A program made the translations under genes and the position numbers. This document shows positions 1,790-28,947 of a stretch of 33,567 nucleotides of DNA, piece by piece. The notes beneath the pieces were generated by a model that made no database searches, was not told the DNA's origin, and saw only the letters and a list, made by a program, of their open reading frames with translations. The DNA comes from a virus. Taxonomy: Duplodnaviria > Heunggongvirae > Uroviricota > Caudoviricetes. Within the stretch, counting starts at the first letter, position 1. The number at the start of each line of letters is the position of its first letter. The DNA lies in the IMG/VR virus record IMGVR_UViG_3300025292_000002, positions 1 to 33,567 of that record. One strand, 5' to 3'.

Positions 1790-2851
1790 ATGGCAGAATT
1801 TAAACTACCACCAACGGAAATAACAAACATTGAGGAAGCCAAAGAAATTCCTTGGGGAGTACAACATGTAAATGCATCACAATTTTGGGATAAAGGAACT
1901 GGGAAAGAAGTTGTTGTGGCAGTACTTGACAGTGGCTGTGATAAAGACCATCCAGATTTAAAAGGAAAAATCCTTGATGGACGAAACTTCACATACGATT
2001 ATGACCAAGACATTTTGAATTATAGTGACAATCGAGGACATGGAACGCATGTTGCTGGTACCATTGCTGGAATCAAAGATGGCAAAGGTATTGTCGGTGT
2101 AGCTCCAGATGTAAAACTTATCATCGGTAAAGTTTTAAATGCAGCTGGTGGTGGCGATTATGACGGAATCATTAATGGTATTCGTTGGGCGACAAAATGG
2201 AAAGGACCAAACGGAGAAAAAGTTCGTGTTATTTCAATGTCACTTGGAGGACCTTACGACATCCCCGAGCTTTACGCAGCTGTTAAAGAAGCGGTTGACA
2301 ATGATATAGTTGTTGTATGTGCTGCTGGTAACGCTGGTGACGGAAATAGCGACACTAACGAATATGCTTATCCTGGTGCCTATGATTGTGTTGTTGAAGT
2401 TGGAGCTGTAGGTCGAGACAATCAACTTTCAACTTTTTCAAACACGAACAATCGAATTGATTTAGTAGCTCCTGGTGAAAATATCTTATCATCTGTTCCT
2501 GGTGGAGCATATGCTGAAATGACAGGTACGTCTCAAGCTGCACCACACGTAGCTGGAGCAGTTGCTTTAATTATCAGTGCTTATGAAAAAGTTGGTCAAA
2601 CATTAACTGAACCAGAAATCTTTGAGCTGTTGTTGAAACATATCAAACCACTGAACGGTCATAAGAATGGTTTCGGTCATGGTGTATTAGATATGTCAAT
2701 GAATGCTGAAGGAATCAAACCAGCGGAAAATAAACACGAACCATTGATAATTTCTAAGGAGAATGGTTTCTTCATTAATATAGGCCCATTTGAAACAAAT
2801 GAAAAAGCCATTGAATTTTTTAGCAAAATCAACCTTACAAATCTAAAATAA
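1790..2851 (+). CDS. Subtilisin-family (S8) serine protease, intracellular IspA-like
   Basis: Catalytic motifs VLDSG, HGTHVAG, GTSQAAPHV and oxyanion AAGN; no signal peptide; short N-terminal extension. Confidence 0.92.
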   Translation: MAEFKLPPTEITNIEEAKEIPWGVQHVNASQFWDKGTGKEVVVAVLDSGCDKDHPDLKGKILDGRNFTYDYDQDILNYSDNRGHGTHVAGTIAGIKDGKGIVGVAPDVKLIIGKVLNAAGGGDYDGIINGIRWATKWKGPNGEKVRVISMSLGGPYDIPELYAAVKEAVDNDIVVVCAAGNAGDGNSDTNEYAYPGAYDCVVEVGAVGRDNQLSTFSNTNNRIDLVAPGENILSSVPGGAYAEMTGTSQAAPHVAGAVALIISAYEKVGQTLTEPEIFELLLKHIKPLNGHKNGFGHGVLDMSMNAEGIKPAENKHEPLIISKENGFFINIGPFETNEKAIEFFSKINLTNLK

Positions 2852-2861
2852 ACAATATAAT
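2833..2861 (+). promoter_or_regulatory. CCTTACA-N16-TATAAT promoter-like motif
   Basis: Same spacing at 3359, 20148, 22921, 27556, 28128 (+) and 32137 (-). Confidence 0.7.
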
Positions 2862-2913
2862 AGTAAAGTAATCAGCGAAACCGATTACAAATAAATTATT
2901 AGGAGAATGCTAA

Positions 2914-3276
2914 ATGGCAAAAACAACAGAATACATCGAGTTAAACACAGGTTCTTTCCCGTATGGTGGAAACATGGTTGTTTCAACAGACGAAAACAAC
3001 ACGCAAGTATTTGTTTCATGTGAACCGGCATGGCAACAAGCATGTACTGTAAAAATTACTTTACAACGTCCAAATCAAAATGAAGCTTGGGTTGCTGTAA
3101 GTGAAACTCGTCAAGGCGATATTTGGAATGATTTCATGAGTAAACAACCTTACCATGCTCAATTCAACAACGTTGCTAAAACTGGTCAAGCAATCCGTGC
3201 TCGTATTTACATGTACGACCCATGGGGTGGCGGACAATACATGCAAGACGATTCAAGTGCTGTTTGGATTCGTTAA
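2914..3276 (+). CDS. Hypothetical beta-rich protein, paralog of 28579..28947
   Basis: RBS AGGAG; shares WNDFMSKQxYxAxFNN(V/I)AxxGQxxRxR with 28579..28947. Confidence 0.8.
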   Translation: MAKTTEYIELNTGSFPYGGNMVVSTDENNTQVFVSCEPAWQQACTVKITLQRPNQNEAWVAVSETRQGDIWNDFMSKQPYHAQFNNVAKTGQAIRARIYMYDPWGGGQYMQDDSSAVWIR

Positions 3277-3280
3277 TTAA

Positions 3281-3306
3281 GGAAGCTCTTCGGAGCTTCT
3301 TTTTTT
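3281..3306 (+). terminator. Intrinsic terminator
   Basis: GAAGCTC-TTCG-GAGCTTC plus T-run. Confidence 0.85.
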
Positions 3307-3319
3307 ATTTGGTTATAAA

Positions 3320-3337
3320 TTGAATATTAATATTCAA
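3320..3337. promoter_or_regulatory. 18-bp palindrome (perfect copy)
   Basis: Between a terminator and a CCTTACA-class promoter motif. Confidence 0.8.
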
Positions 3338-3358
3338 AAAATTAATTATTATTCGCCA

Positions 3359-3387
3359 CCTTACAAAGCACCATGTTTCAATATAAT
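3359..3387 (+). promoter_or_regulatory. CCTTACA-N16-TATAAT promoter-like motif
   Basis: Upstream of the RBS of 3421. Confidence 0.7.
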
Positions 3388-3420
3388 AGTAGTGTAATCA
3401 ACGAATTGGAGGAAACAATC

Positions 3421-3840
3421 ATGGAAAACATAGACAAAATTCTCAAATTGGAAGAAGCAATCTTAAATTTATCATCAGCAAAAAGCAAAATTGAAGAAAT
3501 TTCCGATGTAGCTTTTACTGGTTCATTGGAAGATAAAATTTCTGCTGCAATTATTGAAGCAAAAGCAATGAAAGATTCGTTGGTAGAGCAATTAATTCCT
3601 ACATATAATAGAGGAGAAGCTTCAAAAGAAGTTATCAAAGGCATTTTCTTCTCAACTGTTTCTGGTGGCACACAAGTGAGATATGACAATCTCAGTGGCT
3701 TCGATGTTGAAGTTTTAGAACCACAAACAAATATCACACGAACAGTTTATAATGGCAATTACAGAATTGTAAATAGCGATACAAAATCGTTAATTTTCAC
3801 AATCTCAGGAAAATCAACTGAAGTTAAAATTATTCAGTAA
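3421..3840 (+). CDS. Hypothetical protein (139 aa; N-terminal helical, C-terminal beta-rich)
   Basis: RBS GGAGG before ATG3421; the upstream ATG3373 lies inside a promoter-like motif. Confidence 0.75.
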   Translation: MENIDKILKLEEAILNLSSAKSKIEEISDVAFTGSLEDKISAAIIEAKAMKDSLVEQLIPTYNRGEASKEVIKGIFFSTVSGGTQVRYDNLSGFDVEVLEPQTNITRTVYNGNYRIVNSDTKSLIFTISGKSTEVKIIQ

Positions 3841-3847
3841 TATAAGC

Positions 3848-3875
3848 TGACCTGAGCATGTCGAAAAACTGCTTA
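3848..3875 (+). ncRNA. Putative cis-regulatory H-type pseudoknot, copy 1
   Basis: TGAC-CTGAGCAT-GTCG-AAAAAC-TGCTTA upstream of the RBS of 3902. Confidence 0.6.
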
Positions 3876-3901
3876 AATATTAAATTGGAGGTATTTTATT
3901 T

Positions 3902-4732
3902 ATGACAAGAACAAAAATTATGCCTGGTGAATTATTTATTGTTGAATACGTAGACGGAGCTATTGTAAAACGTTGGGCAATTAATGATTCTAAGAATTAT
4001 ATTGAACTTGGCGAAGGACGTAAAGCTGCAAAAGGTTTCACCGATTTATTAGTTGAACCAGACGACGCTAAATTAACATTAGCTGATTCTCGTTATCATG
4101 TTAAATCAAATGCTGAAGCTATTAAATTTGTATCTGATGCTGGATTTGAAGAATTTATCTTTGCGGAAGTTAAACTTCAAAAATTGAAATTAGCTAAAGA
4201 AACACAAGTTTATAGCAAAACAGGTTCTCTGTTAGGAACTCTTCCTGCTGGTACGGAAATTGGAACGGATACTGGTACTGCTGGTAACTCAATGCCATAT
4301 TTAATGGTTGCGAACTGTTACAAAAATGCTCAAGGATGGCAATTCCTTAACCAAACAAATTATTCATACGGATTTGTGAACGTGCAACAAGCTTTCGGCT
4401 TGCAACAATTCGATGATAAACGAACTTTAGTTACTGCAAAAACAGAAAACGTAGCACAAGTTGATTGGGCATCTGTTGCTTTAGCAATTGGTACGAAAGA
4501 ACCTGAAACTTTCCTACGTGGAGATTTAACTGCTCCTACAAAAGATGTTGTTGTAACAAATGTTAACGACCATTTTGCTTCAATTGATTTGGCTAAATCT
4601 GAGCTACGTGACCCAATTCAGTATTTTGCAAATCTAAAGAATAAAGCCTTTGTTGAAAAATATTTAGGCAAAATCAATGCTACGAAAGCTGCGGATTTCA
4701 AGAAACAAGCTGATGCTTTCAACGCTAAATAA
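3902..4732 (+). CDS. Hypothetical protein (276 aa)
   Basis: RBS GGAGG, long ORF, own terminator; no family recognised with confidence. Confidence 0.8.
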   Translation: MTRTKIMPGELFIVEYVDGAIVKRWAINDSKNYIELGEGRKAAKGFTDLLVEPDDAKLTLADSRYHVKSNAEAIKFVSDAGFEEFIFAEVKLQKLKLAKETQVYSKTGSLLGTLPAGTEIGTDTGTAGNSMPYLMVANCYKNAQGWQFLNQTNYSYGFVNVQQAFGLQQFDDKRTLVTAKTENVAQVDWASVALAIGTKEPETFLRGDLTAPTKDVVVTNVNDHFASIDLAKSELRDPIQYFANLKNKAFVEKYLGKINATKAADFKKQADAFNAK

Positions 4733-4744
4733 TCAGTAATTTAT

Positions 4745-4773
4745 GAGGACTCTTCGGAGTCCTTATTTTTTTT
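4745..4773 (+). terminator. Intrinsic terminator
   Basis: AGGACTC-TTCG-GAGTCCT plus T-run. Confidence 0.85.
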
Positions 4774-4845
4774 GGTTTGCTATTTATATTGTCATGAGCC
4801 ACGTATATATACTGTATAAAACATACATTGAAAGGGTGTGAAAAA

Positions 4846-6546: not shown

Positions 6547-6564
6547 TTGAAAATTAATATTCAA
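6547..6564. promoter_or_regulatory. 18-bp palindrome (1 mismatch)
   Basis: TTGAAAATTAATATTCAA between the terL stop and the portal RBS. Confidence 0.8.
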
Positions 6565-6574
6565 AAAGGAGAAA

Positions 6575-7939
6575 ATGAACATGGGATTTTGGAGCAAATT
6601 AACCGAAAAAAGAAATGCAACAAGCGAAATGGAGCAAAGAGAATCATTTTCAAGTAGCAGTGCTGCTTTTGCTTCCATGTTTGGTAGTGCAACAAATATC
6701 AGCGAAGAACAAGTTGTGAAAATTCCAACTGCTGAGTCTTGTCTGAATTTGATTACGAGCTCAATTGCTCAAATGCCGATTTATTTATACAAAGAAAATG
6801 CTGATGGTTCAGTCGAAAAAGTTTTAGACGACAATCGTGTACACTTACTGAATCACGAGCCAAACGAGCTTTTAAACGGCTACAATTTCAAAAAACAAAT
6901 CGTTAAGGATTATTTATTACACGGTGGAGCTTACATCTCAGTTGAAAAGCTGGGCAATAACGTAAATGAGTTATATCCATTGCCAGCACAAAATATCGCT
7001 GTCACAAAATACATTAAGGACGGATATAAAGCTTCAGCTGACATTCGACTTACTGCATTGGATGGAATTGGCGGTTATCAAAACAAAGAAATTAAATTCA
7101 AACCTTATGAATTGATGATTTCTTTAGCTGATTCTAAAGATGGAGTTACAACTCGAGGATTGCTGATGAAAGGCGAAAAGATTTTCCAACAAGCTTTAGA
7201 CGAAATGGAATATACGTACAATATTTTCCAACGTGGAGCTTTGCCACTCGGTTTATTAAAAACAAGCGCTCGTTTATCTCAAGTTGCTATTGACAGATTA
7301 AGAGATGCTTGGGCAAATCTATATGGTGGTGCCAAAAACTCTGCTAAAACAGTTATTTTAGAAGAAGGAATGGAATACTCGCCATTATCAATGAAACCAA
7401 CTGATTTACAGTTAAATGATAGCAAAAAAGGAACAAACGCTGAAGTATGTAAATTGTTTGGTGTGCCAGAATCAATGATTTCTACAGCTGCCAATAAATA
7501 TGGCTCAATTGAGCAAAACAATTTACACTTTTTAAAACACACATTGTCACCTATTATCGGTTCATTTGAATCAGCTGCTGACAAATCATTGTTGCTTGAA
7601 AAAGAAAAAGCAGAAGGATATTTCTTCCGTTTTGACACAAGCGAATTGTTACGAGCTACCGAAAAGGAACGTACTGAAGCGGTAGCAATGGGTCTTGAAA
7701 AGGGATTATTAACAATCAATGAAGCTCGTGCTAAGCTCGATTTACCAAACATTAAGGACGATGTGTTCATGTGGGGATTACAAAACGTTCTATTCAACCC
7801 TGAAACTGGCGAAATGAAAGTGCCTAATATGGGATTAACTGGAGGAGAAAATAATGGTGATAATACCGCAACAAATAATGATAGCGCTGGAATGGATAAT
7901 GTTAAACCTAAAGATAAGCTTAAAGACAAATCCGACTGA
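6575..7939 (+). CDS. Portal protein, HK97 family
   Basis: Follows terL; L.HGGAY, NAG-like GAKNSAKTVILEEGMEY and TINEARAKLDLP motifs. Confidence 0.93.
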   Translation: MNMGFWSKLTEKRNATSEMEQRESFSSSSAAFASMFGSATNISEEQVVKIPTAESCLNLITSSIAQMPIYLYKENADGSVEKVLDDNRVHLLNHEPNELLNGYNFKKQIVKDYLLHGGAYISVEKLGNNVNELYPLPAQNIAVTKYIKDGYKASADIRLTALDGIGGYQNKEIKFKPYELMISLADSKDGVTTRGLLMKGEKIFQQALDEMEYTYNIFQRGALPLGLLKTSARLSQVAIDRLRDAWANLYGGAKNSAKTVILEEGMEYSPLSMKPTDLQLNDSKKGTNAEVCKLFGVPESMISTAANKYGSIEQNNLHFLKHTLSPIIGSFESAADKSLLLEKEKAEGYFFRFDTSELLRATEKERTEAVAMGLEKGLLTINEARAKLDLPNIKDDVFMWGLQNVLFNPETGEMKVPNMGLTGGENNGDNTATNNDSAGMDNVKPKDKLKDKSD

Positions 7940-10347: not shown

Positions 10348-10352
10348 ATCAT

Positions 10353-10425
10353 GTGTTTGTAGCTCAGTTGGTAGAGCAGGAAGCTGTTAACTTCTTGGTC
10401 GGTGGTTCGAGTCCATCCTTGCACG
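10353..10425 (+). tRNA. tRNA-Asn(GTT), acceptor stem imperfect (two U-U), no encoded CCA
   Basis: D arm AGCTCAGTTGGTAGAGC, anticodon arm GGAAG-CTGTTAA-CTTCT, T arm GGTGG-TTCGAGT-CCATC. Confidence 0.75.
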
Positions 10426-10502
10426 TTTAGGAGAATGGAGTAATTTCTTCATTTTCCTCCATTTGATTTGATTTGATTTCCTCCGATGTTTCGGAGGTTT
10501 CT

Positions 10503-10576
10503 AGGAGCTTAGTTTAGAGGTAAAATATCGGTCTCCAAAACCGAGGTCACAGGTTCGATTCCTGTAGCTCCTGCCA
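10503..10576 (+). tRNA. tRNA-Trp(CCA)
   Basis: Acceptor AGGAGCT/AGCTCCT, anticodon arm TCGGT-CTCCAAA-ACCGA, T loop TTCGATT, encoded CCA. Confidence 0.93.
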
Positions 10577-10577
10577 T

Positions 10578-10649
10578 GGGGTATTAGTATAGCGGTTAGT
10601 ATTACTGGCTTCCACCCAGTAGGCGTGGGTTCGATTCCCACATACCTCT
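10578..10649 (+). tRNA. tRNA-Gly(TCC)
   Basis: Acceptor GGGGTAT/ATACCTC, anticodon arm ACTGG-CTTCCAC-CCAGT, T arm GTGGG-TTCGATT-CCCAC. Confidence 0.9.
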
Positions 10650-10654
10650 TTCAT

Positions 10655-10726
10655 GGGGATATAGTGTAGCGGTTAACACACATGGCTGTCTACCATGTAG
10701 CACGGGTTCGAGTCCCGTTATCCTCG
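10655..10726 (+). tRNA. tRNA-Asp(GTC)
   Basis: Acceptor GGGGATA/TATCCTC, anticodon arm CATGG-CTGTCTA-CCATG, T arm ACGGG-TTCGAGT-CCCGT. Confidence 0.9.
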
Positions 10727-10964
10727 TTGTATACTCACACCGCAAAAAGGCGACTATGCGGGCTACGCTGTGGTAGCAATGATAAGCGCTTATCATTGAA
10801 GAAATAAAAGGCACAGAATCGGATGAGATGAGTACATCTGAATCGGGCAAGAAGATGGTTCTTGCTTGTCGTCAAAAAAAGAGCTTAATATGTTTTCTTC
10901 CGCAAGGAAGTTTTCCGTTCAAAAGGCGCTCGAATAAAAAAACGAAACTAACCTTTTAGAATAT

Positions 10965-11041
10965 GGCGCATTGGTGAAGCGGTCTAACACACTCGACTTT
11001 CTATCGAGCATTCAGGGGTTCGAATCCCCTATGCGCTTCCA
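10965..11041 (+). tRNA. tRNA-Glu(TTC)
   Basis: Acceptor GGCGCAT/ATGCGCT, anticodon arm CTCGA-CTTTCTA-TCGAG, T arm AGGGG-TTCGAAT-CCCCT, encoded CCA. Confidence 0.9.
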
Positions 11042-11042
11042 T

Positions 11043-11117
11043 ATAGACGTAGGCTAGAGGTCAGTCACTCCGTTTGGGGCGGAGGTCACGCAGGTTCGAA
11101 TCCTGCCGTCTGTACCA
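11043..11117 (+). tRNA. tRNA-Pro(TGG)
   Basis: Acceptor ATAGACG/CGTCTGT, anticodon arm CTCCG-TTTGGGG-CGGAG, T arm GCAGG-TTCGAAT-CCTGC, encoded CCA. Confidence 0.88.
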
Positions 11118-11118
11118 C

Positions 11119-11191
11119 GCTGAATTAGCTCAATTGGTAGAGCAGCTGATTTGTAATCAGCAGGTTGCGGGTTCAATTCCTGCATTCAGCT
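11119..11191 (+). tRNA. tRNA-Thr(TGT)
   Basis: Acceptor GCTGAAT/ATTCAGC, anticodon arm GCTGA-TTTGTAA-TCAGC, canonical D arm. Confidence 0.93.
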
Positions 11192-11197: not shown

Positions 11198-11220
11198 AAA
11201 CCTCTTCGGAGGTCTTTTTA
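11198..11220 (+). terminator. Intrinsic terminator after the tRNA cluster
   Basis: ACCTC-TTCG-GAGGT plus T-run. Confidence 0.75.
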
Positions 11221-18350: not shown

Positions 18351-19400
18351 ATGGCTAAAACGCCTTTTACAGATTTAAAAAGTGAGGACATTTTGTCTGC
18401 TCATATAACTGGTGTTCAACATGCTGTAAATAAACTTGAAACGGTTTTAAATTTAAAATCAGCAGCTATTACTGGGTTAACTTTAACTGCAGTAGCAGAC
18501 CAACAAGATGCTAGTTTACACCGTTTAATTTATGAGGGAAGTATCAGAAACTGGCTTGCAGCTCCAGCTCCTGTAATTAAACGAAATGGAACAGTTGTAC
18601 CTGTATCTGAGTATAAAATTCAACCAGCTTACGGTGTAGTTGTATTCAAGACGCCACAAAGTGTAACGGACGTTATTACTGCTGATGTTACACATGTAAC
18701 GGAAGCCAGCGACGTTTTAGAAGGTTTAGACAAACGTGTAGTAACGTTAGAAAATACTTCTGGCGGAGGCGGTGGAGGAACTACTGCTTCAATTATCGGA
18801 TATTCTTCTGGTGGAGATAAGTTTGATACTGATGGCACATACACAATTCAAGCTGGAGACGTTTATTTAACACATTCAGCTAAAACTGCTCCTACATTGG
18901 TTCCAGACATCGGAGCAGGGGCTAATACTATTGACGCTTTCCCATTCGTTGTAACACAACGAACAATCATTGATAAAGTAAAAGTTGAAGTTACAAAACA
19001 AAACTTTGCTGGTGCAAAAGGAATGATTGGCATTTACACAAGTGCAAACGGTCTGCCACACAAACGTCTTGATTACACAGACGCTTATGATGAAACAGTT
19101 GGGGTAATTGAAAAAGCATTAAAAGGCGGAGATTTAGTTTTAGAAGCTGGTGTTTACTGGATTGGTCGTTTTTCAAGTGCAGGAACACAGTACAGAGCAT
19201 TAAATGCTGCTGACGCTACCAAGCTAAACCTTCCAGTTGGATTACCTACGGACATTCGTGCTCCAGAAACGAAAGCTGCAGGTATTAGAACGTCTTGGGC
19301 TAACAACTCAGTTATGCCTGCTGATTATCCTGCTGGTGGTAAAGCATTCGCTCGTGACCAATACTGTTCACCATTCTACCACATCAAAAAATCTTACTAG
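18351..19400 (+). CDS. Putative tail-tip/baseplate structural protein
   Basis: After Dit; two beta-rich domains joined by a Gly linker (SGGGGGGT); function not recognised. Confidence 0.6.
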   Translation: MAKTPFTDLKSEDILSAHITGVQHAVNKLETVLNLKSAAITGLTLTAVADQQDASLHRLIYEGSIRNWLAAPAPVIKRNGTVVPVSEYKIQPAYGVVVFKTPQSVTDVITADVTHVTEASDVLEGLDKRVVTLENTSGGGGGGTTASIIGYSSGGDKFDTDGTYTIQAGDVYLTHSAKTAPTLVPDIGAGANTIDAFPFVVTQRTIIDKVKVEVTKQNFAGAKGMIGIYTSANGLPHKRLDYTDAYDETVGVIEKALKGGDLVLEAGVYWIGRFSSAGTQYRALNAADATKLNLPVGLPTDIRAPETKAAGIRTSWANNSVMPADYPAGGKAFARDQYCSPFYHIKKSY

Positions 19401-19427
19401 TAAAATGCGGATTTTACACATAGAAAA

Positions 19428-19460
19428 AGGGAGTTCCTAACGGAGCTCCCAATTTTTTTT
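19428..19460. terminator. Probably bidirectional terminator between convergent genes
   Basis: A-run, GGGAGTTCC-TAAC-GGAGCTCCC, T-run. Confidence 0.75.
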
Positions 19461-19462
19461 GT

Positions 19463-19627
19463 TTATTTTTCATCTTTCATTTTTAAATTGTCGAGATGTT
19501 GCTCGCCAACTTCTTGTATTGCAGACATAAGCGCATTTGGACTGCCATTGTATATAACACTAGCTTCGGTAGTTCCGCCAGCTGTTTCTATTGTAACTTT
19601 TAATTCATACAATTCATTTTCCATCAT
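19463..19627 (-). CDS. Small hypothetical protein (54 aa, below ORF-track cutoff)
   Basis: RBS GAGGTG; MMENELYELKVTIETAGG...KMKDEK; overlaps the end of 19614..19850. Confidence 0.65.
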   Translation of the reverse strand: MMENELYELKVTIETAGGTTEASVIYNGSPNALMSAIQEVGEQHLDNLKMKDEK

Positions 19628-19850
19628 CTTTCACCTCAATTACCACAGTTTCTTCGCCAAAAGTATATTCAACTGGTGGCATTTTAATACCATGATTATC
19701 AAGGAACCATTGTTGCATTTCTCCGAGAACAGCTTGAGCTGTCCGAGCCCATAAAACATCTTCTTTTAAATATGGTTGTTTCTTTTTTATTGCTTGATAT
19801 CTTTGAGCAATTACATATTGAGCATAATCGTCTTTAGCTTTTTCATTCAT
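19614..19850 (-). CDS. Small hypothetical protein (78 aa)
   Basis: RBS AAGGAG; middle gene of the leftward mini-operon. Confidence 0.7.
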   Translation of the reverse strand: MNEKAKDDYAQYVIAQRYQAIKKKQPYLKEDVLWARTAQAVLGEMQQWFLDNHGIKMPPVEYTFGEETVVIEVKDDGK

Positions 19851-19889
19851 CGAAACCGCTCCTTATTTTGTAATGGGGGTAACAAAAAA

Positions 19890-20060
19890 TTATTTTTGAG
19901 GTTCTCGTTGAATCCATTCAGCATAACCACATGTTGTACATACACGGTCTCCTGTTAAACCGTGAATACTACGTTCTTTCACCATATGGTCATGGTCACA
20001 TGGTTTATCACCAGCTTCTTTCCACTTTCTTCTCAATTCTAAAGCTTCATCCATTTGCAT
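19890..20060 (-). CDS. Small Cys/His metal-binding protein (56 aa, below ORF-track cutoff)
   Basis: RBS AGGAGGTG; MQMDEALELRRKWKEAGDKPCDH...GDRVCTTCG. Confidence 0.75.
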   Translation of the reverse strand: MQMDEALELRRKWKEAGDKPCDHDHMVKERSIHGLTGDRVCTTCGYAEWIQREPQK

Positions 20061-20081
20061 ATTATCACCTCCTATAAGTTA

Positions 20082-20109
20082 ATTATAACAGAAGCTATAG
20101 TGCAGTCAA
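20082..20109 (-). promoter_or_regulatory. SigA-like promoter for the leftward mini-operon
   Basis: Minus strand TTGACT-N16-TATAAT with TGn extended -10. Confidence 0.65.
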
Positions 20110-20147
20110 GAGAAATATTAAATTTATGTTACAAATGGCTTCTTTAT

Positions 20148-20176
20148 CCTTACAAGGTAGCTGAACACAGTATAAT
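20148..20176 (+). promoter_or_regulatory. CCTTACA-N16-TATAAT promoter-like motif
   Basis: Back-to-back with the leftward SigA-like promoter. Confidence 0.65.
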
Positions 20177-20390
20177 ATATTATATACTCACTAGCGTTCG
20201 TATATTATCGTTTCCAACTGGCGTTGAAAACGAGCATCGTTTCTTTCGCTTCGCTGTTGAAATTATATTGAGCTGCTAGCATAAAAGTATACTTCTGCTA
20301 TTTCATCCAATCCATTTAGCATATATATATACTATAACAGAAAAGAACATTTTACTATGTTTACGGAATGGAAGACAATAGGAGGAAATC

Positions 20391-21857
20391 ATGAATAAGT
20401 TTAATAATATGAAAGCTTATGGCTATAACTGGATTAACAAAATTAAGTACAATAGCGATTATTCTGAAAAACTTGTCCAGCTATTAACAAGAATAGGTCC
20501 TCGTCCTATTGCATTGAATAAAAGCAAAGTGCAAGTAGCTGTTTTAGAAAACAGCTTTGATGTAATAATTGACCAAGAAGTTGGCGGAATCGACGAAATA
20601 TCATTCAAGCTTCCAATGAGTGATACAAAACGTGAACTTTTGGAAAATGAAGGATTCATTCAAATGTTCGATGATATTTATGTAATCCGAGAAATCATTG
20701 ACAGAAAAAAAGATAAAACAACTGAGATTTATGCTGAAGCTCTTTGGTATGATTTACAATATGAAGAGCCATTAGAAGTTTTCAAATGGGAAACGGTAAC
20801 AGCTGATGAAATGTTAGCTGGTATTTTAGCAGGAACTGGTTGGACAGTTGGTCAAGTGGCTTTCACAACTAAACGTACATTGCGTTTAGAAGAAGTTGAT
20901 GAAAACCGTCTTGAAGTTATCCGAAAAGTTGAAAACTTATTCCAAGGTGAATTATGGTTCGATACTCAGCGAAAAACTGTTTCATTACTTGACAAAAACG
21001 GTATTGAAACTGGCGCTTCCGTTATGTATGAAAAGAATGCTGATGAAATTGAAGCATATTATGATACTCGTGATTTAATCACAAAAATTTACCTGTACGG
21101 AAAAGAAAAATTGACAATTGCAGATGCCAATAATGGTATTCCTTATCTTGAAGATTACAGCTACACAAATGTAAAACGTGTCCAAGTAATCAAGGATGAG
21201 CGTTATATCAACGCATTCCAGCTTAAAGAAATGGGACAAAAAGCTTTAGCTGAACTATCAAAACCTCGAGCTAGTTACATCGTTAAAATGGGTGAAATGG
21301 CTGAACGTCAAGGTCTTGAACATGAAAAATTCTTCATCGGTGGCGTCGTTCGTGTATACGATAAAGAACTTAATCTGAATCGTAATACTCGTATCATGAA
21401 ATGGAGCTACAATGTAGTTGAACCATGGAGAACACAATTCGATTTAGAATCTAAAGCTAAGAGTTTATCTGAGTTATTAACAGGTAAAGATGGAACGCTT
21501 GAAGTAGCAGTAAGTGAAGATGCAGTTGAACGTGGCGAATTGCTGAATTTATCTGTATTTAACTATTTAATGAACAGCCGTGCTGACGATGGTTATTCTT
21601 ACTGGACAAACAACGGTTGGGAAATTGACCCAGTCAACGGTAGCACAGGAAGTGCTAGTTTTAAAGCCAAAGGTGAGCTTGGCAAAACAAAAACGCTTCA
21701 CCAAACAGTGTACCCTTCATCTTCAGATGATTATGCTATTTCTTTCAAAGCTTTTGCGGATAGTATCGCATTAGGACCGAATGGTCAAGTTGGTATTGAA
21801 ATCACAATCAAATATGATGATGATACAACAGAAACGAAATGGATTAAACTGGTATAG
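20391..21857 (+). CDS. Tail spike / minor structural protein (prophage tail endopeptidase-like, Tal position)
   Basis: GGIDEISF.LP, L.GTGW.VG and T.IY.YGK motifs; C-terminal CBM-like beta-sandwich. Confidence 0.78.
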   Translation: MNKFNNMKAYGYNWINKIKYNSDYSEKLVQLLTRIGPRPIALNKSKVQVAVLENSFDVIIDQEVGGIDEISFKLPMSDTKRELLENEGFIQMFDDIYVIREIIDRKKDKTTEIYAEALWYDLQYEEPLEVFKWETVTADEMLAGILAGTGWTVGQVAFTTKRTLRLEEVDENRLEVIRKVENLFQGELWFDTQRKTVSLLDKNGIETGASVMYEKNADEIEAYYDTRDLITKIYLYGKEKLTIADANNGIPYLEDYSYTNVKRVQVIKDERYINAFQLKEMGQKALAELSKPRASYIVKMGEMAERQGLEHEKFFIGGVVRVYDKELNLNRNTRIMKWSYNVVEPWRTQFDLESKAKSLSELLTGKDGTLEVAVSEDAVERGELLNLSVFNYLMNSRADDGYSYWTNNGWEIDPVNGSTGSASFKAKGELGKTKTLHQTVYPSSSDDYAISFKAFADSIALGPNGQVGIEITIKYDDDTTETKWIKLV

Positions 21858-22920: not shown

Positions 22921-22949
22921 CCTTACAATTTGACTCTTTTAAATACAAT
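22921..22949 (+). promoter_or_regulatory. CCTTACA-N16-TACAAT promoter-like motif
   Basis: Directly after a terminator-like hairpin and before the GH18-like tail gene. Confidence 0.6.
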
Positions 22950-22969
22950 GTTGATGAGAGGTGAAGGCA

Positions 22970-25900: not shown

Positions 25901-25993
25901 GCCAACATGGTTAATGATTATGGTTGTAAGGGTATTGCTTTGTGGACATTAGGACAAGAAGACCCTACAATATATTCATATATTTCAGGATAA
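22970..25993 (+). CDS. Large tail protein with GH18-like glycoside hydrolase motifs
   Basis: GVEIDFE, LMTYD, GNAGYGRRW and terminal KGIALWTLGQED motifs; RBS GAGGTG before ATG22970. Confidence 0.8.
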   Translation: MTKLLTWTLHAPSSSQFSSYYKLADGEPWYSKNYQLVDKNGMSTWDYRKRSFIEMIEKYPHKFYAIGLHQFGVNQQGRVYNMGFGTHAFDKYVLNNYNYEETESTPIIEAKIELPVETSLRYLMHNYPQIKWSLQFLCTTNSVGNRVEPVLDNVNKAQDKFIDDVYHTMRLYLEAGFTNIKGVEIDFEKTTSRPNDEKKFRDLLVRVKNAVCIPLGLELRVNMFAMTGDLTPSYYAWHDYATIASGRDKNGNQAVDEFQLMTYDFSWGGSAPGPSTPLWWLENVLKHVKDLENRGIWKTNKVFIGNAGYGRRWPLGENRYGVTLDYKQLMLAQNGTYIHNPGEETTHNGEYAFWFNDHDFIPISGFNDDESDYQKTYIGVYDRFRLGKNDGARFDNMNRPPAGNYVTNYSRKQFPIFSGVAGYDFNGISNKDKNGEVDASDRYIKNEITEAVTDTLYVAGRTTGLDLSSVKTGYSTQPSKGGISVNGKVDYTINATGSYRLVALVFYPFFDKADIPFTLNGTPYNISGNDEEWYPFMQAQEKHFVDLGTFNFSGENKITVGVTAGAQIWGFVAVSNFDYNLRGGEITFPTNCQPMKRRNTVQNETVSLKNAQYPSVMRIVGETLTRPPRPAIIWEDIFSSYENPEKPEEGVPVTKGFPYYTQAPEGFSVNDWVATKGGEADYDYAYNDSRGKSSQLVLNKKFGSNIAVDVELRGHKDDSTMTYGIRLLATEKSPNSGYVCELNYSEGKVKVVYETPGSGGIPTSETIYSKDMSPALLKMNGQRIKLKAYIIGNKLSFWVEKNPYFDRVTIPYNPGSGAYGVYNLMGRLKVYKYNVSSLDRYERMERIEIITGGKTYYFDEVERDLTQDGYDKYGFIKFSGYPAEIADQIGTPGGEDGATIDPNGNTGTILDTQHDVNYEWSNDYKNKFLAAVPAWQGRQDVKIRFRDAGIWFRNFYVGDNEGMSVAYNSDRIGFIRTANMVNDYGCKGIALWTLGQEDPTIYSYISG

Positions 25994-25995
25994 GA

Positions 25996-26019
25996 AAAGG
26001 AGCTTTATGCTCCTTTTTT
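25996..26019 (+). terminator. Intrinsic terminator
   Basis: AAAGGAGC-TTTAT-GCTCCTTT plus T-run. Confidence 0.75.
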
Positions 26020-26046
26020 AATAAATAAAAAATGGAGGAATTTATT

Positions 26047-27075
26047 ATGGCAGTATGGATTGAAGATTATGTTCGTGTAAATGAGTACACTCGTCCTGGT
26101 TATAAACTTTTAGGTGTTAGAGGTATTGTTGTGCATTATACAGCAACTCCTGGCGCTAGTGCAAAAAATGAAAGAGATTACTTCAATGGCACTTGTATTG
26201 AAGACGAGCGTTATGCTTCGGCACATCTTTTCGTTGATAAAAATGAAGCTCGTTTAATCTTGCCACTTAATGAAGTAGCTTACCACGCAAATGAAAAAGC
26301 TTGTCGTGTTCCAGCATTGAAAGCTACAGCTAGTTATTACACTGGCGGTTCAGCTAACTTAACAGCTATTGGTGTTGAAATGTGTATTGAAAAAGACGGA
26401 AGTTTACACCCAAACACATTGCAAAGAACAATCGCTGTTGTTTCTGAATTGTGTAAAATGTTTGGATTAAATTCTAACAACGTTTACCGTCATTATGATG
26501 TTACTGGTAAAAATTGTCCAGCATTCTGGGTAAGTAATCCTGCAGGATTCACAAGCTTCAAAAATTCATTATCTAGCGGAGGTTCAGGTGGAGGATACCA
26601 ACCAACACCACAACCACCAGCTGAAACAAGCGACGACGGAGCAATTGGTTACATTGATGTAATCGTAGATGCTTTAAACGTTCGTAACGATGCAAGCTTT
26701 GACGCTGGTGTTGTTAAAACAATTCATCCTGGCACACCGTACAAGGTGTATGCTGAGAAAAACGGCTTATACAACCTTGGCGGAAAACAATGGTGTTCAG
26801 CTGGTTCTAAATTCGTTAAATTCACACCGTATGCGAAACCAAAACCACAAGGTTTCAAAACTGGCGATTATCAAGGCAAAGTTCGAATCACTGCTGATTC
26901 ATTAAATGTTAGAGCTGGACGTGGCGTAGGTCACGCTGTCTTAGGAAGCTTTAAACAAGGTCAAGTAGTTGATGTTTGGTATATCGCACCAGCTCCAGAT
27001 GGTTCTTTATGGGGTTCATGCGGAATAAACGGAAAAACAGGATTTATCAATCTTGGATTTGCAGTTCCAGCTTAA
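26047..27075 (+). CDS. Endolysin: N-acetylmuramoyl-L-alanine amidase (Amidase_2, XlyA/CwlA-like) with two SH3b-like domains
   Basis: IVVHYT, SAH..VD, AYHA, IGVEMC, RHYD..GKNCP; two LNVR SH3b-like repeats. Confidence 0.92.
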   Translation: MAVWIEDYVRVNEYTRPGYKLLGVRGIVVHYTATPGASAKNERDYFNGTCIEDERYASAHLFVDKNEARLILPLNEVAYHANEKACRVPALKATASYYTGGSANLTAIGVEMCIEKDGSLHPNTLQRTIAVVSELCKMFGLNSNNVYRHYDVTGKNCPAFWVSNPAGFTSFKNSLSSGGSGGGYQPTPQPPAETSDDGAIGYIDVIVDALNVRNDASFDAGVVKTIHPGTPYKVYAEKNGLYNLGGKQWCSAGSKFVKFTPYAKPKPQGFKTGDYQGKVRITADSLNVRAGRGVGHAVLGSFKQGQVVDVWYIAPAPDGSLWGSCGINGKTGFINLGFAVPA

Positions 27076-27114
27076 TAGCTGGAGCTGATTTTCATAATAA
27101 AGGAGCGCTTACCA

Positions 27115-27531
27115 ATGAAAGAATTTGCTGGAATCTTTTCAATCGTTGCCAGTTTAGCGACGTTTCTTTTTGGTGGCTTTGATGTGACATTACAAATATT
27201 ATCAGTGTTTATTGTTTGTGATTTCATCACGGGGCTATTAAAAGGCTGGTACACAGGTTCACTATCTTCACAGCAAGGGTATAAAGGCATAATCAAAAAA
27301 GCTGGTATTATGTTTGTTATTATAGTAGCGAATATGTTGGACATCCTTACAGGGACTCCATTATTTAGAATGCCCGTAGTTTATTTCTTTGTGGCTATTG
27401 AAGGTGTAAGTATTCTCGAGAACTTAGGAAAAATTGGTGTACCAATCCCTGAAGTTCTTTTAGATAAACTTGCACAGTTGAAAGCTAATGGAAATGCTGG
27501 TCAAGAAGATGAGAAAACTCCGAAGCAATAA
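27115..27531 (+). CDS. Holin (toxin secretion/phage lysis holin family)
   Basis: Three hydrophobic segments; DFITG, G..KK and E..SILEN..K.G.P.P motifs. Confidence 0.9.
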   Translation: MKEFAGIFSIVASLATFLFGGFDVTLQILSVFIVCDFITGLLKGWYTGSLSSQQGYKGIIKKAGIMFVIIVANMLDILTGTPLFRMPVVYFFVAIEGVSILENLGKIGVPIPEVLLDKLAQLKANGNAGQEDEKTPKQ

Positions 27532-27547
27532 TTTCGGAGTTTTTTTC
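27511..27547 (+). terminator. Intrinsic terminator with the holin stop codon in the loop
   Basis: AAAACTCCGAA...TTCGGAGTTTT plus T-run. Confidence 0.75.
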
Positions 27548-27555
27548 ATTTTGCT

Positions 27556-27584
27556 CCTTACATAACAAATATATTCAATATAAT
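27556..27584 (+). promoter_or_regulatory. CCTTACA-N16-TATAAT promoter-like motif
   Basis: After the holin terminator, upstream of the pseudoknot and 27670. Confidence 0.7.
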
Positions 27585-27614
27585 AGTACAGTAATAAATA
27601 AGAAGTACATAATG

Positions 27615-27642
27615 TGACCTGAGTAAGTCGATAAACTGCTCA
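27615..27642 (+). ncRNA. Putative cis-regulatory H-type pseudoknot, copy 2
   Basis: TGAC-CTGAGTAA-GTCG-ATAAAC-TGCTCA upstream of the RBS of 27670. Confidence 0.6.
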
Positions 27643-27669
27643 CTATAATTTATTTGGAGGAATTTTATT

Positions 27670-28011
27670 ATGTTCGCAGGTCAAAATATTGAAATTACGG
27701 TACCAGGAGCAACTCATCTTGGTGGAGAATTTGGAACAGCTCACGCAGCTCGTCAAGATAATATTATAATTTTACAAGGCGGATTAAATTTAAATGGTGT
27801 AGTAATTGAAGGTTCTGGTTCAGTTGGAACATTACCTGTGGGTTACCGTCCAAAAACTGCACAAAAATTTATTGTTGCTACAGACAAAGGCGCTCGTCTT
27901 TTAACTGTACAAATGAATGGTGAATTAATTCTTCGTGCTGATGGAGATTTACCTGGTGAAACGTTTAGAGAAATTTCATTCGCTGGCGCTTCATTTATTG
28001 CGTATTTTTAA
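27670..28011 (+). CDS. Hypothetical protein resembling a stand-alone tail-fibre/RBP C-terminal head domain
   Basis: GTLPVGYRP motif in a beta-rich 113-aa protein; RBS GGAGG. Confidence 0.65.
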   Translation: MFAGQNIEITVPGATHLGGEFGTAHAARQDNIIILQGGLNLNGVVIEGSGSVGTLPVGYRPKTAQKFIVATDKGARLLTVQMNGELILRADGDLPGETFREISFAGASFIAYF

Positions 28012-28127
28012 GCTTTACTTGATGTAAAGAACTGTATATATATTATATAAGAGCTAAGGAGAAATCCTTGGCTTTTATTTTTTTTAACAAAAAGCTGAAG
28101 TAAAATCACGATTTTATTATATTGGCT

Positions 28128-28156
28128 CCTTACAACTCGGAGTAATTCAATATAAT
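28128..28156 (+). promoter_or_regulatory. CCTTACA-N16-TATAAT promoter-like motif
   Basis: Upstream of the RBS of 28203. Confidence 0.7.
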
Positions 28157-28202
28157 AGTATAGTGACAAACAAACAACTAAGAAAATCGGAGGAAATTTA
28201 TT

Positions 28203-28523
28203 ATGGCACAATGTACTTATATGGACGTTCAATCAGGTGTAGGAACACACAAAGGCTCTCTTTGCATGAGCAAAGATAGTAGCAATATCTATTTCACAGT
28301 TGGAGCACAAGCAATTGGTTCTTGGGGATATGAGGGTTATGCCACAGTTAAATGTGCGGTTCAGGACCCAGATGGTTCATGGAGAGAATTTGCTTCGAAA
28401 CGAGTTCTTGTAACGTACCCAATAAACGGTACATTTACAAACGTTGCTGCATTTGGTAAGAAAATGTATATGAGTGTTAGTTTCCAATATGGCGGATTCG
28501 GTATGATTGAATTCGTTCGATAA
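28203..28523 (+). CDS. Hypothetical beta-rich protein, possible distant paralog of 2914 and 28579
   Basis: RBS GGAGG; F-x-N-V-A-x-x-G and terminal FVR resemble the other two. Confidence 0.75.
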   Translation: MAQCTYMDVQSGVGTHKGSLCMSKDSSNIYFTVGAQAIGSWGYEGYATVKCAVQDPDGSWREFASKRVLVTYPINGTFTNVAAFGKKMYMSVSFQYGGFGMIEFVR

Positions 28524-28528
28524 TTGGC

Positions 28529-28556
28529 TGTCCTGAGTATGACATAAAAATGCTCA
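28529..28556 (+). ncRNA. Putative cis-regulatory H-type pseudoknot, copy 3
   Basis: TGTC-CTGAGTAT-GACA-TAAAAA-TGCTCA upstream of the RBS of 28579; compensatory A-U to U-A change in stem 1. Confidence 0.6.
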
Positions 28557-28578
28557 ATTTTTATTTGGAGGACGTAAT

Positions 28579-28947
28579 ATGCATAGAGAAGTTTGCGATT
28601 TTTATTTAGATGATAAACTCTTCCCTTGGGGCGGTCAAGGTTATGTTCACGTTGTTGAAGATTACAAAAACGTTTATGTAACTTTTGAACATGCTTTCAA
28701 AGCAGGTAGCTGGGTAAAAGTAAGTTTAGAAACAGCTGGCACAAGCGGAGAACGATGGTCTGTAATTGGCACGAAGAAAGGTCAAGCTTGGAATGATTTC
28801 ATGAGCAAGCAAAATTATAACGCTGTGTTCAATAACATTGCCATGAATGGTCAATACTTACGAGTACGAGTAGCACTTTACAGCGTATGGAACGGAAGCA
28901 TTGAAATGATGGGCGAAACAACAGTGAGCCATTGGGTACGACAATAA
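28579..28947 (+). CDS. Hypothetical beta-rich protein, paralog of 2914..3276
   Basis: RBS GGAGG; shared WNDFMSKQ block at protein and DNA level. Confidence 0.8.
   Translation: MHREVCDFYLDDKLFPWGGQGYVHVVEDYKNVYVTFEHAFKAGSWVKVSLETAGTSGERWSVIGTKKGQAWNDFMSKQNYNAVFNNIAMNGQYLRVRVALYSVWNGSIEMMGETTVSHWVRQ

Follow-up and report, generated by a model that had tools for sequence, protein, structure and literature searches.

Gene content of the two islands

The window, meaning the whole 33,567-nt stretch of DNA that was analysed, belongs to a Bacillus-type phage with a 97.6-kb genome that is related to pBS32, GR1 and VPE25. It carries two accessory islands: island A lies at the junction between terS and terL, and island B at the junction between the lysis genes and a recombinase gene. 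The genes, promoters, pseudoknots and UUCG-loop terminators described for the islands, and the terS and holin genes bordering them, are on the plus strand.

Island A is bordered on the left by the small terminase subunit gene (621 to 1115; Pfam Terminase_4, E 7e-16) and by an 18-bp palindrome, TTGAATATTAATATTCAA, found in the genome scan (1116 to 1133, unstranded). The first gene, A1 (1136 to 1732), encodes a 198-residue protein with choline-binding, i.e., cell-wall-binding, repeats (Pfam Choline_bind_3 and Choline_bind_1, E 4e-18) and is followed by a terminator at 1738 to 1761 in the terminator scan. A2 (1790 to 2851) is a subtilase (Pfam Peptidase_S8, E 4e-60), whose 3' end overlaps the promoter at 2833. 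A3 (2914 to 3276) encodes a 120-residue beta-sandwich protein, identified by protein comparison and PHROG search as a phrog_24885 member and a paralogue of B3. A4 (3421 to 3840), called by sequence reading with 139 residues, yields no family match in Pfam, PHROGs or the Atlas; its start is likely the ATG at 3421 behind a GGAGG rather than the one at 3373, within the promoter. A5 (3902 to 4732) has 276 residues, which are modelled as an N-terminal beta region and a C-terminal helical domain (pLDDT 81). The beta region shows weak tandem SH3b-like matches, a feature-based lead points in the same direction, and the model has weak fold matches to SH3b-bearing cell-wall enzymes. Ten homologues of A5 were found.

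Island B begins behind the holin gene (Pfam Phage_holin_4_1, E 1.5e-36) and its terminator at 27511 to 27546, which together occupy 27115 to 27546. B1 (27670 to 28011; 113 residues) resembles a free-standing receptor-binding protein (RBP) head domain, its structural matches in the Atlas (TM 0.73 to 0.81, by query) being the C-terminal domains of BppU, Phage_RBD_prop, DUF859 and tail-fibre proteins; the terminator scan places a terminator at 28047 to 28078. B2 (28203 to 28523; 106 residues) is a divergent phrog_24885 member (PHROG E 1.3e-9), and B3 (28579 to 28947; 122 residues) belongs to the same family by protein comparison and PHROG search. The B3 model is a confident eight-strand beta-sandwich (pLDDT 92), for which no specific structural relative was found. 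A UUCG-loop terminator (28951 to 28972) and a copy of the palindrome (28991 to 29008) form the right border (28951 to 29008), beyond which lies a tyrosine recombinase gene (29026 to 30009).

Island A thus contains one phrog_24885 protein and island B two (E 1e-13 for A3, 1e-9 for B2 and 1e-14 for B3), and A3 and B3 are 37% identical (E 1e-22). TP-84 likewise has tandem paralogues of this type, and among the bacterial relatives of A3, B2 and B3, about half have signal peptides. Wall-binding repeats, a subtilase, SH3b-like domains, an RBP-head-like domain and Ig/CBM-like beta-sandwiches together make the cargo look envelope directed. The surface-directed cargo proposed in an earlier sequence-only reading is borne out by A1, A2, B1, the weak matches of A5 and the signal peptides among the A3/B2/B3 relatives.

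Shared parts and their distribution in the genome and in relatives

The same reading listed a promoter, a pseudoknot, terminators and paralogues as common to the islands; all were found at the positions given, and all are non-random. The promoter motif CCTTACA-N16-TATAAT has 6 matches in the window against 0.01 expected, at 2833, 3359, 27556 and 28128, plus 20148 (plus strand) and 32137 (minus strand). The four island copies, each recovered in the motif, genome and promoter/terminator scans, are predicted to drive A3 (2833 to 2861), A4 and A5 (3359 to 3387), B1 (27556 to 27584), and B2 and B3 (28128 to 28156). The UUCG-type terminator loop CTCTTCGGAG has 4 matches against 0.04 expected (3286, 4750, 28957 and also 11202), and the generic terminator scan also calls the loop sites at the islands. 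These are the intrinsic terminator after A3 (3279 to 3302, with a palindrome copy then at 3320 to 3337), the one closing island A (4743 to 4766, with terL starting at 4828) and the one at the right border of island B. A 28-nt H-type pseudoknot has 3 matches in the window against 0.02 expected.

The implied restriction of these parts to the islands does not hold. Across the 97.6-kb genome, the promoter occurs 14 times as an exact match and 17 times under relaxed criteria, with an extended consensus around the -10 element. Most of these copies are on the minus strand, at 30 to 97 kb, and the motif represents the promoter class in general use by the phage. Five copies of the terminator loop exist in the genome, two of them followed by the palindrome, of which there are about 25. 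A third locus of the same build, at 81.6 to 84.2 kb, comprises a promoter at 84199, genes for three secreted proteins with signal peptides, the pseudoknot in a variant form, a terminator with the UUCG loop and the palindrome; this fourth pseudoknot copy (genome positions 82125 to 82152, minus strand) lies 28 nt from the downstream ATG. The well-matching plus-strand promoters of the 27-kb virion region number four, all within the two islands.

The SigN (ZpdN) regulon was described for the Bacillus subtilis plasmid pBS32 by Burton et al. 2019 (PMC6751061), with promoters of the form TTTACG-N14-GATATA, which the phage motif, read as CTTACA-N14-AATATA, resembles. The two elements are related (TerL 66% identical), both encode a sigma factor (that of the phage, at about 44.4 kb, has a Sigma70_r2 domain), and their promoters share the same geometry. 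The virion region of pBS32 is likewise largely without SigN promoters (PMC6751061), but the present phage has four copies of its own motif there, on the accessory islands; its consensus is a sequence variant, and its sigma dependence is predicted. No pseudoknot copy was found in pBS32. We infer that the standard promoter is probably read by the phage's own SigN-like sigma factor, and it is also a good match to host sigma-A (10 of 12 positions).

Comparison with related phages had been proposed as a way to follow cassette gain and loss; both junctions do vary, and none of the relatives examined carries both islands. No gene separates terS from terL in GR1 and pBS32, while the junction holds one ORF and a tRNA in Vipetofem and only homologues of the subtilase (59% identical to A2) and of A5 in L132. 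At the other junction, the endolysin and recombinase genes are immediate neighbours in L236, and about 1.5 kb of unrelated small ORFs lie there in L235. The expected co-segregation of motifs and island genes fails in these genomes. The A5 homologue has the promoter and lacks the pseudoknot in L132, has a shortened pseudoknot and no family promoter in L131, and has neither in L133. The tandem A3/B3 homologues of L233 keep the UUCG-loop terminator alone, near-identical and directly behind each stop codon, as in A3 and B3. The B2 homologue of L232 (86% identical) follows the major tail protein gene in the tail module and has a pseudoknot variant on its 3' side, then a terminator rather than a gene. 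Judged from these arrangements, the cassette parts assort independently in relatives, and the phrog_24885 gene and its terminator travel together.

A portable pseudoknot

Copies 1 (3848 to 3875) and 3 (28529 to 28556) of the pseudoknot lie between genes: the distance from the upstream stop codon is 7 nt for A4 and 5 nt for B2, and that to the next ATG is 26 nt for A5 and 22 nt for B3. Copy 2 (27615 to 27642) has no upstream ORF; it is in a 5' leader whose predicted start is about 24 nt away, and the B1 ATG follows after 27 nt. Searches recovered the element from at least 115 contigs of IMG/VR and 91 genome stretches, many bacterial phyla being represented. A structure-based scan gave 231 matches against 2 in reversed sequence, and a pairing-blind scan gave 171 distinct sequences against 0 in the control. 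Most instances were retrieved by sequence pattern, which accounts for part of the apparent invariance in sequence. Among variants with two substitutions, 8 of 10 are compensatory within one predicted pair; such changes occur in both stems, and full compensatory replacement is tolerated. The neighbouring downstream genes are mutually unrelated and include three scaffold-protein families, a head protease, a T7-type RNA polymerase and a Mom-like protein. Covariation and distribution thus argue for a genuine, portable pseudoknot with a wide spread among phages of many bacterial phyla, and it is the novel item among the common parts.

Phage T7 has RNase III processing sites between genes, among them R1 just upstream of the RNA polymerase gene. 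One T7-like contig has the pseudoknot just upstream of its RNA polymerase gene, in the place of R1, and both elements recur as structured RNA that punctuates polycistronic phage mRNA at the boundaries of genes; the present one, however, is a 28-nt pseudoknot instead of a long irregular hairpin, and cleavage here would be hypothetical. GP20 is presumably a scaffold-like head protein, and thus a gene context shared with the pseudoknot. The Rfam motifs GP20-a and GP20-b (RF02991 and RF03003) are likewise conserved RNA structures upstream of phage genes, namely GP20 (PMC10690425), but they differ in structure, and the Rfam models gave no match on twelve pseudoknot loci, including four cultured phages with the element in scaffold-gene leaders. 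A role in frameshifting or recoding was ruled out: frames shifted by one nucleotide meet a stop inside the pseudoknot, so that a recoding product is impossible.

Position suggests, tentatively and at somewhat less than even probability, a compact nuclease-resistant punctuation mark in polycistronic mRNA. An ORF ends 4 to 8 nt upstream in 36% of 198 instances (mode 5 nt), and in one instance only does an ORF run into the motif, by 3 nt. While a ribosome terminates on the upstream gene, the pseudoknot would fold just beyond the ribosomal footprint, capping the 3' end of that cistron and shielding the 5' side of the next, which could raise or uncouple the expression of both. Five contigs have the element 1 to 6 nt upstream of tRNA genes, and a U-tract follows it in 15% of instances. 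Contrary to such a barrier, copy 2 has no upstream ORF, and the 35% of instances with an ATG 10 to 40 nt downstream fit a translational role equally well.

Such a role, in which the pseudoknot, docked on the 30S platform immediately 5' of the ribosome-binding site (RBS), acts as an initiation enhancer or standby site for high downstream translation, is rather unlikely. It would accommodate copy 2, and the commonest distance to the downstream ATG is 20 to 29 nt, with or without a Shine-Dalgarno sequence (22 to 27 nt in the window and 28 nt for the fourth copy). Four cultured phages whose head modules are of SPP1 type have the element in the gap upstream of the scaffold gene, whose product is needed at very high levels; in two of them, the preceding gene is annotated as a MuF-type minor head protein. 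Yet only that 35% have an ATG within reach, many instances are instead followed by a tRNA gene, a U-tract or promoter-like hexamers, and the L232 copy leads into a terminator.

An operator for an RNA-binding protein, a small riboswitch or a self-cleaving ribozyme seems improbable. The motif is compact and highly conserved, and a ligand or an intrinsic activity would be consistent with its occurrence across phyla. Its architecture recalls the preQ1-I aptamers and luteovirus frameshift pseudoknots, which are compact triplex H-type pseudoknots, in size (about 28 to 34 nt), one-nucleotide first loop and A-rich last (third) loop suited to minor-groove triples, but the sequence differs and has no Rfam match even at E 10. 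The RBS is not sequestered, and there is no expression platform overlapping it because the pseudoknot ends at least 10 nt before it. Few unpaired nucleotides are conserved beyond C5 and AAAC, the junction base N12 varies, and, as noted, both stems can be replaced. The T4 gene 32 mRNA pseudoknot is an autoregulatory leader element, also of H type and upstream of the RBS in a phage mRNA. That element (mentioned in PMC10690425) is tied to one gene and its own product, whereas the present one precedes or follows many unrelated genes, several times per genome, with no common downstream family able to autoregulate.

Origin and expression of the islands

In tailed phages, lambdoid ones among them, a moron is an autonomous unit of promoter, gene and terminator that has been inserted between conserved genes. 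The islands are similar in that their small genes have a promoter and terminator of their own and separate genes that lie side by side in relatives, and in their varying cargo; they differ in that their promoters belong to the phage's own genome-wide class rather than being individual host-type promoters. The best explanation, which we consider probable, is that they are separate moron-type accessory insertions at two module junctions, i.e., ordinary cassettes written in the common regulatory syntax with envelope-directed cargo. The islands would look alike because each small transcription unit of the genome uses that syntax: the standard promoter, a strong RBS, the UUCG-loop terminator and often the palindrome. 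The modular cassette build proposed earlier, with an optional pseudoknot and a small beta-rich protein, is upheld. Only the phrog_24885 family and the portable pseudoknot would carry history, the former having been copied between the islands along with its terminator. To that extent the earlier claim of duplication stands, but the remaining parts are genome-wide syntax. The accompanying view that the islands are not independent random morons is at odds with junctions that are empty or differently loaded in relatives.

The sequence-only reading had taken them for one dedicated, coordinated accessory system with a private promoter, pseudoknot and terminator kit, its surface-binding proteins acting jointly in adsorption control, superinfection exclusion, virion decoration or anti-defence. 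Common non-random parts, a paralogous family in both islands, the supported cargo theme and the confinement of the pseudoknot to accessory loci in this genome speak for it. It is nevertheless very doubtful, given the genome-wide parts, the third locus, a pseudoknot attached to unrelated genes in many phages, and relatives that carry single parts in other combinations and places, with both islands together in none of those examined.

Under the preferred reading of separate insertions, no private link would join the islands. Some functional coordination beyond a shared sigma factor may still exist, a possibility kept alive by the promoter placement, the pseudoknot found only in accessory loci and the common cargo theme. 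Since the island promoters belong to the genome-wide class, the units are probably part of the phage's main sigma regulon, and both islands would therefore be expected to be switched on with many other units bearing that promoter, independently of the surrounding virion operon.

Cassette layout in the two islands and at a third locus

The accessory genes between terS and terL (island A, genes A1 to A5) and those between the holin and lysis genes and the tyrosine recombinase gene (island B, genes B1 to B3) are laid out as short units. Island A opens with an 18-bp palindrome at 1116, followed by A1, which carries choline-binding repeats, a terminator at 1738 and the subtilase gene A2. The next unit runs from a promoter at 2833 through A3 (2914-3276) to a UUCG-loop terminator at 3279 and a palindrome at 3320, and the last one consists of a promoter at 3359, A4, an RNA pseudoknot at 3848, A5 and a UUCG-loop terminator at 4743, ahead of terL. 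In island B, the holin terminator is followed by a promoter at 27556, a pseudoknot at 27615, B1 and a terminator at 28047. The second unit has a promoter at 28128, B2 (28203-28523), a pseudoknot at 28529, B3 (28579-28947), a UUCG-loop terminator at 28951 and a palindrome at 28991, beyond which lies the recombinase gene.

The sequence-only reading had counted two promoter copies per island, one pseudoknot in island A and two in island B, and near-identical terminators, and had taken the islands for one duplicated, coordinated accessory system. The parts themselves are present as described. Pattern scans of the window gave 6 matches to the promoter pattern CCTTACA-N16-TATAAT against 0.01 expected, 3 to the pseudoknot against 0.02 and 4 to the terminator loop CTCTTCGGAG against 0.04, so that none of these parts is a random occurrence. 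Most of the shared parts are found throughout the genome. The promoter occurs in 14 exact copies, or 17 if one mismatch is permitted in the -35 element, 12 of these 17 being on the minus strand at 30-97 kb; the CTCTTCGGAG loop has five copies, including those at 11202, behind the tRNA cluster, and at 81.5 kb; and the palindrome, with about 25 copies, lies 3' of two island terminators as well as of terminators elsewhere.

A third locus (genome positions 81617-84199, minus strand) begins with a promoter at 84199 and encodes a 278-aa membrane protein and three tandem small beta-rich proteins with signal peptides, ending in a CTCTTCGGAG terminator and then a palindrome. A structure-based scan found a fourth pseudoknot within it (82125-82152, minus strand), 6 nt past the stop codon of the second signal-peptide protein and 28 nt ahead of the ATG of the third, with a compensatory change of G9-C25 to A-U in its second stem. 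Since this locus has the same build, the cassette design is a whole-genome habit and does not indicate a link between the two islands.

The promoter copies share an extended consensus of roughly tCCTTACA-N13-tCAATATAATAGTA, and at about 44.4 kb the phage has a gene for a Sigma70_r2-domain protein. The SigN promoters of the B. subtilis plasmid-phage pBS32 read TTTACG-N14-GATATA (PMC6751061); the corresponding CTTACA-N14-AATATA of this phage has the same geometry and related hexamers. Because the motif also fits the host sigma-A at 10 of 12 positions, we can only infer which sigma factor it serves.

A fifth plus-strand promoter copy (window 20148-20176), with a divergent -10 context, falls in roughly 1 kb of ORF-poor sequence among the tail genes (19400-20390), over which the GC skew is locally reversed. 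About 200 nt of leader separate this copy from the Prophage_tail gene at 20391, and the stretch may represent a further small transcription unit or specify a non-coding RNA. The plus-strand terminators at 1738, 3279 and 4743 all lie between terS and terL, so terL and the virion genes need either their own promoter in the 60-nt gap at 4767-4827 or terminator read-through; neither the family promoter nor the palindrome occurs in that gap.

The 97,567-bp record is complete according to CheckV. The head-tail-lysis module occupies the plus strand of the window, and from about 30 kb on the genes are on the minus strand. The TerL of this phage shares 70% identity with that of Geobacillus phage GR1, 66% with that of pBS32 and 63% with that of the Enterococcus VPE25/vipetofem group, and a megablast search of the window against cultured phages matched only the tRNAs. 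Seven tRNA genes (Asn, Trp, Gly, Asp, Glu, Pro and Thr; window 10352-11191) form a cluster within the virion module, with the capsid gene on one side and the head-tail genes on the other, and the cluster ends in a further CTCTTCGGAG terminator (11202-11211). In base composition the islands show no sign of a foreign origin.

Proteins carried by the islands

The assignment of one paralogue to island A and two to island B was right: A3, B2 and B3 all match the phrog_24885 profile (E values of 1e-13, 1e-9 and 1e-14), as does a paralogue in phage TP-84 (E 2e-57), and A3 and B3 are 37% identical (E 1e-22). The family is rare, with 29 representatives among 1.8 billion proteins in an exhaustive profile search; word-index homologue searches with B3, and likewise with B1, listed the query itself as the sole match. 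About half of the family members, those from cellular genomes, carry signal peptides. The B3 model is an eight-strand beta-sandwich (pLDDT 92), for which fold searches of the PDB and the AlphaFold DB gave generic beta-sandwich matches and no specific structural relative. A role of the family in virion decoration is plausible, since a B2 homologue in another stretch (L232) adjoins the major tail protein gene.

B1, a free-standing protein without a sequence-family match, has an Atlas model that resembles the C-terminal head domains of BppU-type baseplate proteins, Phage_RBD_prop and tail fibres (TM 0.73-0.81 by query). The A5 model (pLDDT 81) has an N-terminal beta region and a C-terminal helical domain; Pfam gives no match for A5, and its beta region shows weak fold matches to SH3b-bearing enzymes (E 1e-3 to 1e-6, low TM), in agreement with a feature-based lead. 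A4 has no match in Pfam, PHROGs or Atlas. With the A1 repeats, the A2 subtilase, the head-like fold of B1 and the weak SH3b-like matches of A5, the earlier description of the cargo as surface-binding-like, that is, directed at the cell envelope, holds up.

DUF6241 genes recur near A5 and phrog_24885 homologues in several unrelated contigs (L133, L134, L233 and L234); in L233, genes for a sigma factor and a holin accompany them.

Junctions and cassette parts in related genomes

The terS-terL junction is empty in GR1 and pBS32, where the two genes are adjacent; vipetofem has one small ORF and a tRNA there, and a 98-kb relative (L132) has a subtilase and an A5 homologue only. Since searches of GR1, pBS32 and vipetofem did not find the holin, island B was compared via the recombinase, for which three stretches (L235, L236 and L237) encode homologues that are 59 to 64% identical. 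In L236, 135 nt separate the endolysin gene from the recombinase gene, and in L235 the junction holds about 1.5 kb of unrelated small ORFs; within 6 kb, none of the three has B1 to B3, the pseudoknot, the family promoter, the palindrome or the UUCG-loop terminator. Island A, as judged from GR1 and pBS32, and island B, as judged from L236, therefore lie, as morons do, between genes that are adjacent in relatives, and motif and intrinsic-terminator scans suggest that each also has the promoter and terminator of its own that define a moron.

Co-segregation of the motifs with these genes in relatives had been set beforehand as the test of a coordinated system, and the parts turned out to separate in six stretches. 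The A5 homologue in L132 has the family promoter and no pseudoknot, and that in L131, at another place in the element, has a shortened pseudoknot before the gene and no family promoter. In L133 and L134, ribonucleotide reductase genes precede the A5 homologue, which has a different hairpin in front of it. The B2 homologue in L232 is 86% identical and directly 3' of the major tail protein gene; behind it come a short-linker variant of the pseudoknot and a terminator, in that order. The tandem A3/B3-like genes in L233 have neither promoter nor pseudoknot, and each has a nearly identical UUCG-loop terminator right after its stop codon, like A3 and B3; TP-84 also has tandem copies of the family.

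Because the L233 genes keep the A3/B3-type terminator at the stop codon, the gene with its terminator is an inherited, duplicated unit, and the other cassette parts are interchangeable. The idea of a duplicated modular system is thus retained for one gene-plus-terminator unit, but the promoter, terminator and palindrome are genome-wide, and the third locus is built alike. Since the parts do not co-segregate in relatives, there is no support for a dedicated coordinated system. Both islands are ordinary accessory cassettes in the common regulatory grammar of this phage, and the novel element is the widespread pseudoknot.

A pseudoknot at gene boundaries

The three window copies of the 28-nt element fit UGNCCUGAGYANGN'C-N3-AAAN-UGCUYA, and the consensus is UGNCCUGAGYANGN'C-N3-AAAC-UGCUYA. 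By our own arithmetic the pattern holds about 40 bits, so that about one chance match is expected in a genome collection of 596 Gb. The pseudoknot was found in at least 115 IMG/VR stretches and in 91 stretches of species-representative genomes, among them genomes of Lactobacillaceae, Clostridia, Bacteroidaceae, Saccharibacteria and other Patescibacteria, cyanobacteria, Deltaproteobacteria, a phytoplasma and others. It is carried by phages and prophages of Bacillota, Bacteroidota, Cyanobacteria, Patescibacteria, Pseudomonadota and others, and the sequence surrounding the copies has a local G+C of between 15% and 63%. It is absent from 5,426 complete E. coli genomes and from pBS32.

The element is an H-type pseudoknot with two stems backed by compensatory changes. 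Stem S1 pairs positions 2-4 with 13-15 and stem S2 positions 6-11 with 23-28; in an alignment selected for pairing, three of three S1 pairs and four of six S2 pairs covary. All four Watson-Crick combinations occur at the middle pair of S1. A formal pair count over 149 sequences found both-sided changes in 7 of 9 pairs, the 100% paired figure of this alignment being given by construction because its sequences were selected for pairing. As retrieval with a fixed pattern biases conservation, two further scans were run over all 1.9 Mb of sequence. A descriptor limited to the geometry and a handful of unpaired bases produced 231 hits, compared with 2 in reversed sequence, 12 of the hits having a different yet complementary S2. 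A pairing-blind scan that tolerated as many as three substitutions returned 171 distinct sequences and none from the control, and among its ten two-substitution variants, eight are changed at both partners of one predicted pair with pairing kept.

Rfam 15 at the gathering threshold identified only the 7 tRNAs in the window, and at E 10 the pseudoknot leader region gave only a spurious caiA match to the ribosome-binding site. A literature search found no description of the motif, which may lie unnamed among the thousands of candidates in PMC10690425.

GR1, the closest cultured relative, has one copy of a variant pseudoknot (56155-56177, minus strand) with an A7-U27 pair, 84 nt upstream of a 128-aa ORF without a PHROG match. 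A Selenomonadaceae genome contig (L146:251-3994) has seven copies in 3.7 kb; six of them are packed into 1.7 kb, where the intervening sequence holds no convincing ORF or tRNA. The cluster may represent a series of small RNAs or of very short genes.

A single protein family downstream of the pseudoknot is ruled out, as 70 downstream ORFs fall into many unrelated clusters, none of them akin to the island proteins. The downstream genes include three scaffold-protein families, a head maturation protease, a T7-type RNA polymerase and a Mom-like protein. In the cultured phages Lj771, StB12, A403 and phig1e, the pseudoknot occupies an unannotated gap upstream of the scaffold and major capsid genes, and in Lj771 and StB12 the preceding gene is annotated as a MuF-type minor head protein. 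Cultured phages with the element come from Lactobacillus (L. johnsonii Lj771, L. gasseri phi jlb1 and KC5a), Staphylococcus (StB12) and Anoxybacillus (A403).

The position relative to the upstream gene is sharply defined. Among 198 non-identical instances, an upstream ORF ends 4-8 nt before the pseudoknot in 36%, with a sharp mode at 5 nt, and an ORF runs into it only once, by 3 nt; the gaps in this phage are 5, 6 and 7 nt. A gap of 5 nt is just beyond the footprint of a ribosome on the stop codon, so the pseudoknot can stay folded while the upstream gene is translated. A tRNA gene follows at 1-6 nt from the end of the pseudoknot in five contigs (L063, L122, L077, L009 and L040) and at 13 nt in a sixth (L085); in L077 and L040 the order is ORF, pseudoknot and tRNA, the ORF ending 5-6 nt before the pseudoknot. 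Several genomes have repeated pseudoknots at successive gene boundaries. These contexts point to an intercistronic punctuation structure.

The most likely reading of its function, which we put forward tentatively, is that of an exonuclease barrier. Once the upstream cistron has been terminated or processed, for which the action of RNase P at an adjoining tRNA is one example, the pseudoknot would cap its 3' end; it would also shield the cistron that lies downstream. Its main rival is a translational enhancer acting on the gene that follows; an ATG lies 10-40 nt downstream in 35% of the 198 instances and a U-tract follows in 15%, and we consider this reading doubtful, the downstream neighbour being a tRNA gene in the six contigs named. 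An operator, riboswitch or ribozyme is less likely still; searching twelve pseudoknot loci with Rfam, which includes preQ1, GP20-a/b and small ribozymes, returned tRNAs only. Recoding by frameshift or readthrough is ruled out by a TGA at motif positions 6-8 and often a TAA or TAG at positions 10-12, readthrough past the A4 stop codon ending five codons on, and tRNA 3'-end mimicry is ruled out by the presence of CCA after the motif in only 12 of 217 instances.

Beyond the exonuclease barrier as such, we think it quite possible, if still short of probable, that the pseudoknot is a previously undescribed cross-phylum class of phage mRNA element, a portable nuclease-resistant or ribosome-interacting mark at gene boundaries, which this phage has recruited specifically onto envelope-directed accessory genes.

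For the islands, the comparison cautions that motifs shared between distant loci can be no more than the mark of a genome-wide regulatory grammar. It also offers a clear view of the way in which a pBS32-type phage-plasmid sets into its virion operon units probably dependent on a sigma factor of its own, the genome having three such envelope-directed loci. The function of the pseudoknot bears on how phages set the stoichiometry of proteins made from one transcript. If the proposal is true, the element would be a general, transferable means to set the output of single cistrons in phage operons, and it might also serve synthetic biology as a compact part.
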